The position numbers and the translations under genes were made by a program. DNA of 47,884 bases from Candidatus Omnitrophota bacterium (lineage in GTDB: Bacteria; Omnitrophota; Gorgyraeia; B26-G9), in the NCBI GenBank assembly GCA_018895275.1, contig JAHIOQ010000125.1, forward strand, positions 1-47,884, given 5' to 3'. The notes beneath the pieces are model-generated. The model made no database searches, was not told the origin of the DNA, and saw only the letters and a list, made by a program, of their open reading frames with translations. Positions 1 through 2,575 of the stretch are shown here, piece by piece (position 1 is the first letter of the stretch; every line of letters begins with the position of its first letter).

Positions 1-112
1 AAGACAGAAGACAGAAGACAGAAGACAGAAGACAGAAGACAGAAGACAGAAGACAGAAGACAGAAGACAGAAGACAGAAGACAGAAGACAGAAGACAGAA
101 GACAGAAGTCTG
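1..112. repeat. Heptamer tandem array (AAGACAG)x15 plus one AAGTCTG variant; runs off the left edge
   Basis: Perfect 7-nt periodicity over 1-105, read directly. Confidence 0.98.
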
Positions 113-133
113 AAGAAAAGAAGATGGGGGAAA

Positions 134-248
134 ATGGCGCGGGTATAAAAAAATAATTATTTGGCAAAAGGCAGATGATTTAGCATATAAGGTATATGTG
201 GAATCTAAAGTTTTACAAATCGTTAGGATAATTACTTATGACTTATGA
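134..248 (+). pseudogene. Internally deleted, frameshifted four-helix-bundle (23S rRNA IVS/Avd-like) remnant, copy 1
   Basis: ATG GCG, an extra C at 140, then GYKKIIIWQKADDLAYKVYVESKVLQIVRIITYDL*. YxxLxxWQKAxxLxxxVY is the typical N-terminus of this family. Confidence 0.8.
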
Positions 249-1608
249 CTGTGAACTTGTGACTAACAAAAGCGCTTTTACTCTTATCGAACTGATGGTA
301 TCCAGCGCGATATTAGTTGCGGTTTTATCTACTTTTTTAGTTACTTTTAACCGGACGCTTAATTTGGCAGAGCAGAGCCGCGATGATTACCTTGCCGGTT
401 CCGCGGTGCGGATGAAATTGGAAGAGATACGCAGTCATAATTTTAGCAGTATTAGGGCGGATTATGGGGCCGGTGGGACGCCGGGTAATACCTTTGACAT
501 TGCCGGATTGGCGGGAAAGGGAAGCATAGCAATAAGTGACCGGCCTGCGCTTTATGGAGGGGGAGAAAACCAGGCAACGGCTGCGGCCGGATGGGCAATA
601 AGAGATGGGCATACATCTTTAGTTTATGACAACAAAATGTGGTTAATAGGCGGTGAAGATGGCACTACTTGCTTTAATGATGTCTGGTATTCCACTAATG
701 GAATAAACTGGACACTGGCAACTGCCTCAGCCGGCTGGGAAGGACGAGCTTATCATACTTGTTTAGTCTATGACAACAAGATATGGATAATGGGTGGCAT
801 GAAGCCACCGGCTATTTATCTGAACGATGTCTGGTATTCTGTAGATGGTATAAACTGGACTGAAGCCACTTCTGCTGCTGCCTGGTCGGCTCGAAATAGC
901 CATACCTCCTTAGTCTATGACAACAAGATGTGGGTCATGGGCGGTTATGCTGCTAAAAACGATGTCTGGTATTCTACTGATGGAATCAACTGGGTCCAAG
1001 CCACAGCTTCAGCTGTCTGGCAGCCAAGAAATGCGCATACATCTTTAGTTTATGATAATAAGATGTGGGTAATTGGTGGGCAAGCTGGTAGCCGTCTAAA
1101 TGACGTGTGGTATTCTGTTGATGGAGTGAACTGGGCCCAGGCCACAGCTTCAGCTGCCTGGGTAGGCAGAAGCTTACATACATCTTTAGTTTATGATAAC
1201 AAGATGTGGGTGATTGGCGGGTATGTTGGAGTGAAAAAAAACGATATCTGGTATTCCACCGACGGCGCAAACTGGGTGCAAGCAAAATCTGCTGCAAATT
1301 GGTCCCCTCGATATGGCCATAGTTCTTTGAACTATGATAACAAGATGTGGGTGATAGGGGGGTATGATGATGATTATAAAAACGACGTCTGGTATTCAGT
1401 TGGCTATGACCGGCTGCTGGAGGTGGTAATTACCGTTTGCTGGCAGGACAAGAGCGGCCGGATTATCGGCGAGGATACAAATCTTAATGGTATTCTTGAT
1501 GCCGGAGAAGATGTGAATGTAAACGCTGAACTGGATTCACCGGTTAATTTCCGGGAATTTATTACGGATAAGGAGAAGTTAACAAGGATATATTTGGGAG
1601 GTAGTTAG
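238..1608 (+). CDS. PilV-like minor pilin with an inserted six-bladed Kelch beta-propeller
   Basis: Prepilin motif SA|FTLIELMV plus hydrophobic helix; six ~47-aa repeats (HTSLVYDNKMWVIGG...NDVWYSxDGxNW); acidic C-terminal EDxNxNGxLDxGED. Confidence 0.88.
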   Translation: MTYDCELVTNKSAFTLIELMVSSAILVAVLSTFLVTFNRTLNLAEQSRDDYLAGSAVRMKLEEIRSHNFSSIRADYGAGGTPGNTFDIAGLAGKGSIAISDRPALYGGGENQATAAAGWAIRDGHTSLVYDNKMWLIGGEDGTTCFNDVWYSTNGINWTLATASAGWEGRAYHTCLVYDNKIWIMGGMKPPAIYLNDVWYSVDGINWTEATSAAAWSARNSHTSLVYDNKMWVMGGYAAKNDVWYSTDGINWVQATASAVWQPRNAHTSLVYDNKMWVIGGQAGSRLNDVWYSVDGVNWAQATASAAWVGRSLHTSLVYDNKMWVIGGYVGVKKNDIWYSTDGANWVQAKSAANWSPRYGHSSLNYDNKMWVIGGYDDDYKNDVWYSVGYDRLLEVVITVCWQDKSGRIIGEDTNLNGILDAGEDVNVNAELDSPVNFREFITDKEKLTRIYLGGS

Positions 1609-1629
1609 TTTATAGAGTTTATTGGGCAC

Positions 1630-1706
1630 AAGTCAGAAGTCAGAAGTCAGAAGTCAGAAGTCAGAAGTCAGAAGTCAGAAGTCAGAAGGAAGAAGTCAGA
1701 AGGAAG
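1630..1706. repeat. Heptamer array of 11 units: (AAGTCAG)x8, AAGGAAG, AAGTCAG, AAGGAAG
   Basis: Counted directly. Confidence 0.97.
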
Positions 1707-1714
1707 AGGGGAAA

Positions 1715-1831
1715 ATGGCGGGATATAAAAAATTAATCGTTTGGCAAAAGGCAGATGATTTAGCATATCAGGTATATGTGGAGACTATGGAAATTTTACA
1801 AATCGTTAGGATAATTACTTATGACTTATGA
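1715..1831 (+). pseudogene. Internally deleted four-helix-bundle remnant, copy 2 (open 38-aa mini-ORF)
   Basis: MAGYKKLIVWQKADDLAYQVYVETMEILQIVRIITYDL*; purine-rich RBS (GAGGGG) upstream; its 3' end overlaps the start of the next pilin gene. Confidence 0.82.
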
Positions 1832-2435
1832 CTGTGAACTTGTGACTAACAAAAACTCAAGTAACTCAAGACGCGCTTTTACCTTAATAGAAATGATGAT
1901 GGTCATCAGTATGTTTTCTGTTATCATGGGCATTGTTTACGCGGCGTTAAGGACAAATGATGTTTATAACGGGCTTATACAGATTCAGGTGGACTTGTAT
2001 CGTCAGAATCAAAGAGCCCTGTCTTCGATATCGGAAGAATTAAAGAAGTCGAATTTGGCAACGAGAGTTACTATTCAGGATGGGGCGGGAGTAAATAATA
2101 CGGACATTATTTACTTTCAGCTGCCAATTGGACTGGATAATAATTATAACATAATCTGGGGAGCGGATGGCACAAATAATTATTATGCGCGTTATCGGTT
2201 AGACGCGACGGCTGCATTTCTACTGCGCGATATCCTGGCCGCGGGGCTTACCCCGGCCGCGGGGACCGGGCAGCAGAAGGCATATAGGATTATTGATTTA
2301 CAGTTCGCGGATTCCGCGTTGGATGCATCTGTTCCGTCCGGCAGTATAAGAATTACAAGTACGGCACAAAGGCAAAGCCCGGATAAACATAATATAACTT
2401 TATCTAATAGTGCCTTGGTGTATTTGGAAAATTAA
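1821..2435 (+). CDS. PilW/PulJ-like minor pilin
   Basis: RRA|FTLIEMMMV prepilin motif plus hydrophobic helix; position in the operon. Confidence 0.88.
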   Translation: MTYDCELVTNKNSSNSRRAFTLIEMMMVISMFSVIMGIVYAALRTNDVYNGLIQIQVDLYRQNQRALSSISEELKKSNLATRVTIQDGAGVNNTDIIYFQLPIGLDNNYNIIWGADGTNNYYARYRLDATAAFLLRDILAAGLTPAAGTGQQKAYRIIDLQFADSALDASVPSGSIRITSTAQRQSPDKHNITLSNSALVYLEN

Positions 2436-2575
2436 CAGTCAATAGTCAGAAGTCTAAAGTCAGAAGTCAGAAGTCAGAAGTCAGAAGTCTAAAGTCAGAA
2501 GTCAGAAGTCAGAAGTCAGAAGTCAGAAGTCAGAAGTCAGAAGTCAGAAGTCAGAAGTCAGAAGTCAGAAGTCAG
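2436..2575. repeat. Heptamer array of 20 units (mostly AAGTCAG, two AAGTCTA) filling the whole intergenic space
   Basis: 140 bp = 20x7, running from the base after the TAA (2435) to the base before the ATG (2576). Confidence 0.97.

Follow-up and report, generated by a model that had tools for sequence, protein, structure and literature searches.

The DNA analysed here is a stretch of 47,884 nucleotides from Candidatus Omnitrophota bacterium (contig JAHIOQ010000125.1, assembly GCA_018895275.1), referred to as the window. Its first 3.3 kb contain the start of an operon of the type II secretion system (T2SS)/type IV pilus (T4P) type on the forward strand, as deduced from open reading frames (ORFs), Tandem Repeats Finder (TRF) and Pfam. 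The subject of this work is a pair of cassettes within this operon. Each of them combines an array of tandem heptamers, a stub related to genes for four-helix-bundle (4HB) proteins and a right arm of degenerate heptamers in inverse orientation, and each is fused to the 5' end of a pseudopilin gene.

All features described in this paragraph lie on the forward strand. Heptamer array 1 (1..116) was detected by TRF with a period of 7, 16.6 copies and 97% matches; its unit is AAGACAG, units of the form AGAAGTC are found at its inner edge, and the array continues past the contig start. Stub 1 (134..233) is a frame-broken pseudogene remnant with a stop four codons after the ATG at 134 and with small indels in the alignment to the second copy. 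The adjacent right arm 1 (234..264; ACTTATG, ACTTATG, ACTGTGA, ACTTGTG and ACT) lies inside a 61-bp core (211-271) and contains the start codon of a Kelch-repeat pseudopilin gene (238..1608), whose product matched Pfam Kelch families with E down to 1.5e-35 and the N_methyl family with 20.0 bits, just below the cut-off of 21.2 bits. Heptamer array 2 (1630..1702; 10.4 copies, 93%, unit AAGTCAG) begins 22 nt past the stop of this gene and contains no stop codon in any forward frame. Stub 2 (1715..1831) is an intact ORF of 38 codons with its ATG at 1715, a GAGGGG motif resembling a Shine-Dalgarno sequence and a stop at 1829-1831, by which it overlaps the next ATG by 11 nt. Right arm 2 (1817..1847) has the same sequence as right arm 1 and is the inverted partner of arrays 2 and 3; in both arms TRF also recognized ACTTATG in 2.4 copies (234-250 and 1817-1833). 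The second pseudopilin gene (1821..2435) encodes the N_methyl motif RRAFTLIEM and scored 29.3 bits for PF07963 and 28.2 bits for TIGR02532. Heptamer array 3 (2444..2576; 19.0 copies, 93%, unit AGTCAGA) stands alone; it begins 9 nt past the stop of pseudopilin gene 2, and its last base is the A of the ATG of a further gene, ORF3 (2576..3310).

The two ~150-bp cassettes align at ~91-92% over 148-158 nt and are AT-rich, with a GC content of 32-34% vs. 45% for the window. An earlier note on this DNA had reported the three arrays and two identities between the cassettes. The array coordinates hold (TRF 1-116, 1630-1702 and 2444-2576), and the identities of 61 bp (211-271 = 1794-1854) and 29 bp (160-188 = 1740-1768) are exact and maximal, as neither of them can be extended. 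The fusion of the cassettes to the two pseudopilin genes was likewise borne out: the only in-frame starts are the ATG codons at 238 and 1821 or the GTG codons at 259 and 1842, and since all of them lie within the right arm, the 5' ends of the pseudopilin genes are supplied by the cassette. In the Kelch pseudopilin gene, codons 1-11 (leader MTYDCELVTNK) are cassette-encoded, and the two pseudopilin proteins are alike only in their first 36 amino acids, which comprise the cassette leader and the cleavage motif.

Read in the opposite orientation, the right arm is a degenerate form of the AGAAGTC unit. RNA folding predicts that it pairs with the left array in copy 2 (z=-3.7, with none of 200 shuffles as good) but not in copy 1 (z=-0.3). 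The stem of copy 1 was lost because the interior of array 1 changed to AGAAGAC, while its edges kept AGAAGTC.

That the stubs descend from a gene of the TIGR02436/PF05635 family, as had been claimed from the peptide, is supported by profile comparisons. The stub 2 peptide reached 13.3 bits with Pfam PF05635 (E=0.1, under the cut-off of 33.8 bits) and E=0.007 with NCBIfam NF008911, and TIGR02436 gave no match to the stub at E<=1; an intact 4HB gene of the same genome on contig C129 scores 108.4 bits with the latter model. Residues 3-25 of the stub were placed by hhalign on columns 8-30 of a 4HB profile of 21 sequences with E=9.7e-6, and the region of helix 1 with its WQKA-type motif is 57% identical over 23 residues to a relative's protein. 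When all 72,408 stop-to-stop frames of the genome were searched in six frames with a hidden Markov model (HMM) of the N-terminal helix, stub 2 attained rank 8 and stub 1 rank 9 (frame 114-245, E=0.051), outranked only by seven full-length 4HB genes. The C-terminal part of the stub gave no significant match to the 4HB family, so that the similarity is limited to helix 1. Judged by sequence, the stubs are remnants of the PF05635/TIGR02436 family and not members of it, with 38 amino acids or a broken frame in place of four helices and about 110-135 amino acids. The internal deletion postulated in the earlier note is plausible in so far as helix 1 and the right arm are both retained, but the stub's C-terminal part found no counterpart in the family.

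Intact elements and heptamer arrays

Full-length, repeat-flanked elements of the parent type, the existence of which had been predicted, were found: seven full-length PF05635 genes are present in this genome. Intact copies are flanked by inverted short tandem repeats, mostly heptamers and in one case decamers, and the unit differs from element to element. The inverted-flank score was higher than that of every shuffle at six of the seven 4HB loci of this genome, at 19 of 27 loci of relatives (those with enough flanking sequence) and at 57 of 80 loci of a cross-phylum set comprising Patescibacteria, Bacteroidota, Gammaproteobacteria, Clostridia, Planctomycetota and others. As a control, 401 other small genes of this genome were scored; 14 of them exceeded every shuffle, with a best score of 26 vs. 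up to 50 at the genome's own 4HB loci. Arrays detectable by TRF on both sides were present at 33 of the 80 cross-phylum loci, and PF05635 itself occurred in 25 of the 30 genomes searched (this one included). Read on the same strand as the 4HB gene, the cross-phylum 5' arm units mostly follow the pattern NNNN(T/C)AG. TAG was contained in 22 of 43 5' arm units (8.1 expected from letter-shuffled units) and CTA in 13 of 33 3' arm units (6.4 expected). Stop codons in three frames were considered as the reason for the heptamers, but they do not account for the arrays of the pilus operon, as the window's own unit carries no stop on the forward strand.

The neighbors of intact elements include rlmN, a glycosyltransferase gene, DNA methyltransferase genes and others. 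At two loci, C127:6230-7441 and C150:24284-25498, 4HB elements with adjoining gene-less hairpins are nested within large DNA-methyltransferase ORFs of 845 and 738 amino acids, each open at one end. The host frame, which differs from the 4HB frame, is open across the whole insert in both cases; in C127 neither frame has a stop over 363 nt, and in C150 a TAG interrupts the 4HB frame. Open host frames are what one would expect of an insert that undergoes translation and not removal. An uncultured Clostridia contig (L112, positions 3-2207) encodes a PglX-like methyltransferase with an in-frame 4HB element at a position homologous to that in C127, the insertion point being between the motifs GRYSLD...G and DGI(I/L)PIT. 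The shared position across distant phyla could reflect homing or a permissive loop. A generally open alternative frame in 4HB genes was tried as an explanation and discarded, the mean numbers of off-frame stops (11.7 and 9.9) being near the codon-shuffled expectation; a fully open +2 frame was present in 3 of 98 4HB genes vs. 0.035 expected from codon shuffles.

Heptamers are widespread in this genome beyond the intact elements. Seven is the commonest tandem period (85 of 462 TRF rows), and 64 of 78 period-7 arrays are intergenic, counted at a score of 40 or more. With nearness defined as a distance within 30 nt, 27 of these 64 arrays are near a gene 3' end only, five near a 5' start only, seven near both and 25 near neither. 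The arrays of the pilus operon are spaced alike. Contig C72 of the assembly has a T2SSE/MshEN ATPase gene at its end; past the stop of this gene come AGTCAGA units and, after these, AGAAGAC units. Because of this end, C72 very probably precedes the window, joining it at array 1; arrays 2 and 3 of the window and the array of C72 lie 22, 9 and ~10 nt past the preceding stop. Owing to the excess at 3' ends and to the similar gaps in the window, the arrays are more aptly regarded as belonging to the end of the gene that they follow than to the start of the gene that they precede.

Altogether 46 arrays of this genome have an inverted partner, and gene-less inverted arrays are common. The window itself contains such a hairpin at 33883-34022, where AAAATCA units face TTTTGAT-like units in the spacer between an ORF ending at 33785 and the next one starting at 34111. 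A unit family CTCATAG/CCATGAG comprises 25 arrays (e.g., C4:2964-3018, C55:1973-2075, C123:1629-1698 and C129:7933-7975), of which one pair brackets the intact C129 4HB gene and the rest stand singly or in pairs. With few exceptions, the strand that bears TAG has the orientation of a gene ending 0-30 nt before the array. This family looks like a case of an autonomous element with non-autonomous relatives. Turnover can be followed at the junction of rlmN and a yacP-like gene, which holds a full 4HB element in this genome, is empty in five relatives, carries gene-less arrays with different units in four others and a GC-rich hairpin in one. The junction is thus a single site at which arrays have been gained, have been lost and have decayed.

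Several contigs of the assembly break within long heptamer arrays (ends of C24, C72 and C98, starts of C103 and C160), and heptamer arrays are one cause of its fragmentation. The end of C98 and the start of C160 have the unit AGGACAG in common and may be neighbors.

Pilus genes, copy number and population data

The 158-bp core is present in two copies in the genome, both of them in this operon of the window and 1.6 kb apart, and a 22-nt core pattern found no match in public collections of genome contigs or metagenome contigs. A regex motif search defined 26 prepilin-like ORFs in the genome. An array within 300 nt upstream was present at two of them, both belonging to the window, and at none of the other 24 (Fisher p=0.25). 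The suggestion that the element targets pilin operons was rejected on these grounds, and the intact elements stand beside unrelated genes.

The earlier note had also counted a third pilin gene with an array only. Array 3 does precede ORF3; the identity of ORF3 as a pilin gene is less certain, as its product has a hydrophobic N-terminus and neither a canonical prepilin motif nor a Pfam or NCBIfam family. It is a putative minor pseudopilin similar to GspK/PilX. Its N-terminal 60-110 amino acids show 25-41% identity to the N-termini of larger ORFs in relatives, and weak matches to the N-terminus were obtained in six of 16 family genomes. Weak PilN-like and PilO-like ORFs, recognized by Pfam, lie between ORF3 and a secretin gene (5078-6466, also assigned by Pfam). 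The best relatives of this secretin are 39-46% identical, and a paralogue within the genome is 43% identical. Loci picked by secretin similarity in related genomes represent a paralogous pilus operon and not an orthologous one, and no relative was found among the metagenome contigs searched with the secretin.

The genome contains ten matches to secretin genes (e.g., C30:7860-9074 and others on C21, C24, C48, C42, C77 and C95). With some ten secretin paralogues and roughly two dozen prepilin-like ORFs, it has unusually many pilus or T2SS-type systems for 2.6 Mb. In the paralogous operon of relatives, heptamer arrays are situated in the spacer ahead of the major pilin gene (L038:11425-11504, L048:12600-12890 and L046:262-413). 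There they lie between the preceding gene, which may encode a regulator to judge by the end of its product, and a TGGCAC-N5-TTGC-like motif resembling the sigma-54 promoter consensus.

Seven groundwater-metagenome runs from five studies contain part of the stretch. Contigs of four runs from three studies were compared over positions 117-2450, parts of which are uncovered in X2, X3 and X5. Outside the array, the listed pieces from X1, X3 and X5 match the window exactly. In X1 and X3 the cassette core (1708-1854) is assembled as a contig of its own, as one expects of a two-copy repeat; its recovery in independent runs of two studies shows that it is not an assembly artefact. Within the arrays, the contigs of these runs are interrupted. 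The bin of array sequences reached a summed depth of up to 1436 and had many different loose ends, which implies that the array unit is common in other organisms of the samples. No joint beyond those across the 61-bp repeat or the shared array unit was observed in the contigs of the four runs over this range. One contig of 549 nt from X2 (depth 5.6) joins the copy-2 stub to pseudopilin 1 across the 61-bp repeat; it may be an assembly path through the repeat and was not counted as a recombinant.

Origin of the cassettes and rival explanations

We consider it fairly probable that the cassettes are decayed copies of an element of the intervening sequence (IVS) type known from 23S rRNA genes, and that their association with pilin genes is local and historical and not a targeting rule. 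The intact element, which is present in most relatives and in many phyla, consists of a small 4HB gene (PF05635/TIGR02436, the S23p/Avd fold family) with a purine-rich heptamer array at its 5' side and the inverse array at its 3' side. One such element in a spacer of the pilus operon would have lost the middle of its ORF, and the unit of array, stub and arm would then have been copied into the neighboring spacer, or both units would have been homogenized by gene conversion; the direct arrays could have supplied the homology for either process. An array of this unit lies in the third spacer. Two pseudopilin genes that are otherwise unrelated now obtain their ribosome-binding region, start codon and first 11 codons from the right arm. 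Whatever effect the cassettes have at present would be incidental: the predicted fold of copy 2 allows its arms to pair across the pseudopilin AUG, and the stub ORF, which ends 11 nt inside the pseudopilin gene, would couple translation, whereas copy 1 has lost both features.

Several points weigh against this interpretation. The complete identities (61/61 and 29/29) next to unrelated pilin bodies could mean selection and not recent copying or conversion. The intact upstream ORF, the Shine-Dalgarno-like motif and the significant stem of copy 2 would suit a regulatory role that has been retained. A full-length parent having the AGAAGTC unit was not found in this 89%-complete assembly, and neither the family genomes nor the metagenome contigs searched yielded an orthologous operon by which the events could be dated. 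Moreover, intact elements are not mere junk. They can be old and conserved: at a locus common to three genera, the 4HB protein shows 80-86% identity; two of these genera share 69-74% identity in each flank, and in the third genus the upstream flank reaches only 45-47% and the downstream flank 68-70%. The intact 4HB protein is thus under purifying selection.

In a first alternative, the cassette is a retained post-transcriptional module: the stem would hide the pseudopilin start, and translation of the stub or cleavage of the stem would open it and thereby set the level of each pilin. The earlier note had likewise proposed a per-gene expression module. For copy 2 alone this is possible, with its long-range stem over the AUG (none of 200 shuffles as good), the GAGGGG ahead of the stub ATG and the stub stop at 1829-1831 beyond the ATG at 1821; copy 1 has lost both the stem and the upstream ORF and nevertheless precedes an intact gene. 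The cassettes are far more conserved than the pilin bodies, and the stem of the 23S rRNA IVS, which is cut by RNase III, provides a precedent (PMC4990558). However, selection on the stems at the RNA level was rejected: of the arm mismatches counted over 22 elements, 54 were sense, 45 were antisense and 82 were transversions, which reveals no G-U strand bias among wobble-compatible mismatches. An RNase III domain (PF14622, PF00636) was not found in this genome, which is 88.7% complete; PF14622 occurs in only two of 17 family genomes, neither of them among the 12 high-quality ones, which would be unusual for bacteria if real. The host frames that are open through the nested elements also argue against removal from the mRNA at those loci. 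Taken together, we regard a retained module as rather unlikely.

A further alternative is a non-autonomous element resembling a miniature inverted-repeat transposable element (MITE), inserted twice independently and each time upstream of a pilin gene. The truncation of the cassette with both arms kept would suit such an element, as would the numerous gene-less arrays that have the unit of an intact element (the 25 CTCATAG arrays with one pair around the C129 gene) and the junction occupied independently by arrays with different units. Yet there are only two core copies, adjacent in one operon, with none in public collections and no association with pilin genes elsewhere in the genome. The identity reaches into the first 11 pilin codons, which fits local copying or conversion, and target-site duplications at the cassette borders were not seen by eye, where the inverted arms are tandem arrays and no formal test was applied. 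The MITE-like character that the earlier note had assigned to the cassette is not supported, and we judge a double insertion to be quite improbable. Still further down in probability are the direct arrays as recombination handles, by which pilin genes would be deleted, duplicated or swapped, or as phase-variable simple-sequence repeats; we hold either role to be highly improbable. In favor of such roles, arrays 1-3 flank each pilin gene as direct repeats and share a unit family, their units evolve by expansion of variants (AGAAGAC in the interior and AGAAGTC at the edges of array 1), and the number of heptamers in the Coxiella IVS differs between strains (PMC4990558). The handle function, also put forward in the earlier note, received no support from the contigs of the four runs, in which only joints explained by the repeats occurred; as contigs drop rare variants, this is weak counter-evidence. 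Phase variation is opposed by the location of the arrays between a stop and the next start, where a change in copy number shifts no frame, and promoter-like consensus sites in the cassette are about as frequent as expected from shuffles (8 vs. 7.7).

The wider family pattern and known systems

Returning to the decayed IVS-type element, the cassette of the pilus operon is in itself a minor curiosity, an element with an arm that has come to serve two pseudopilin genes as their 5' end. The main interest lies above this local object in the wider pattern of the family. It is conceivable, although we place the chance somewhat below even, that PF05635 genes with inverted (NNNNYAG)n arrays constitute a widespread, unrecognized class of mobile or semi-domesticated cassettes. 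The 23S rRNA IVS would then be one landing site, and other insertions would be found after stop codons in operon spacers or, with preservation of the frame, inside genes such as those of PglX-type methyltransferases. The over-represented heptameric repeats of bacteria, with gene-less hairpins and the arrays of this pilus operon among them, would be footprints of this class, and each 4HB protein would recognize its own heptamer. If true, this regularity would tie together three subjects that are commonly kept apart: the family of S23p or '23S rRNA IVS' proteins, the Avd fold found in diversity-generating retroelements (DGRs) and the long-noted, unexplained excess of tandem heptamers in bacteria. 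The link would also provide a testable object, composed of a conserved small protein with its cognate array, a positional rule after stop codons and a series of empty, array-only and full sites.

Among known systems, the DGR accessory protein Avd presumably shares its Pfam family and fold with the intact 4HB genes. The system at hand is not a DGR, because no match to a reverse transcriptase (RVT_1) was found anywhere in this genome. Repetitive extragenic palindromic (REP) sequences, bacterial interspersed mosaic elements (BIMEs) and MITEs are small extragenic palindromic units which follow gene 3' ends within operons, some of them as non-autonomous derivatives. In contrast to these, the arms described here are tandem arrays, the unit varies per element, and the stub-bearing cassette exists in only two copies. 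Intergenic heptameric tandem repeats are known from cyanobacteria as short tandemly repeated repetitive (STRR) heptamers. Rehm et al. (2015; PMC4692102) described over-represented intergenic heptamer arrays with the units GGGAATC in Xanthomonas and GGGGAYT in Nostoc, including 70-75 convergent inverted pairs per Xanthomonas genome. The tandem arrangement, the intergenic location and the convergent pairs resemble the gene-less hairpins of this genome; the units here are diverse, however, and the 5' arm units of the cross-phylum loci mostly conform to NNNN(T/C)AG when read along the 4HB gene. In the portion of that article considered here, the repeats are interpreted as G-quadruplex formers, and the terms 'S23', 'intervening' and 'helix bundle' have no occurrence. 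A 2024 preprint on rRNA insertions in the candidate phyla radiation (CPR) termed 23S_rRNA_IVP functionally uncharacterised, and in the literature covered, supplements excepted, no paper was found that connects PF05635 genes in general with heptamer arrays at their flanks outside rRNA.

The 23S rRNA IVS of Coxiella and Leptospira (PMC4990558) shares with the elements described here an ORF of the PF05635 family which is prone to decay and which is accompanied by complementary arms; in the cassettes, a stem between the arms is predicted for copy 2 and not for copy 1. In Coxiella, a 28-bp stem that RNase III cuts borders the S23p ORF, and directly upstream of the ORF there are two to three tandem heptamers, GACAGAT followed by GACAGAA, which vary in number between strains (PMC4990558). 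The cassettes differ from the IVS in several respects: they are located in spacers of a protein-coding operon and not in helix 25 or 45 of the rRNA, their ORF is reduced to 38 codons, and the search of this genome gave no RNase III domain. The window arrays are far longer, with 10 to more than 19 units, and in the element family such arrays form both arms. The likeness nevertheless extends to the repeat unit, since the GACAGAA of the Coxiella IVS, as given in PMC4990558, is a rotation of the unit of array 1 in the window.

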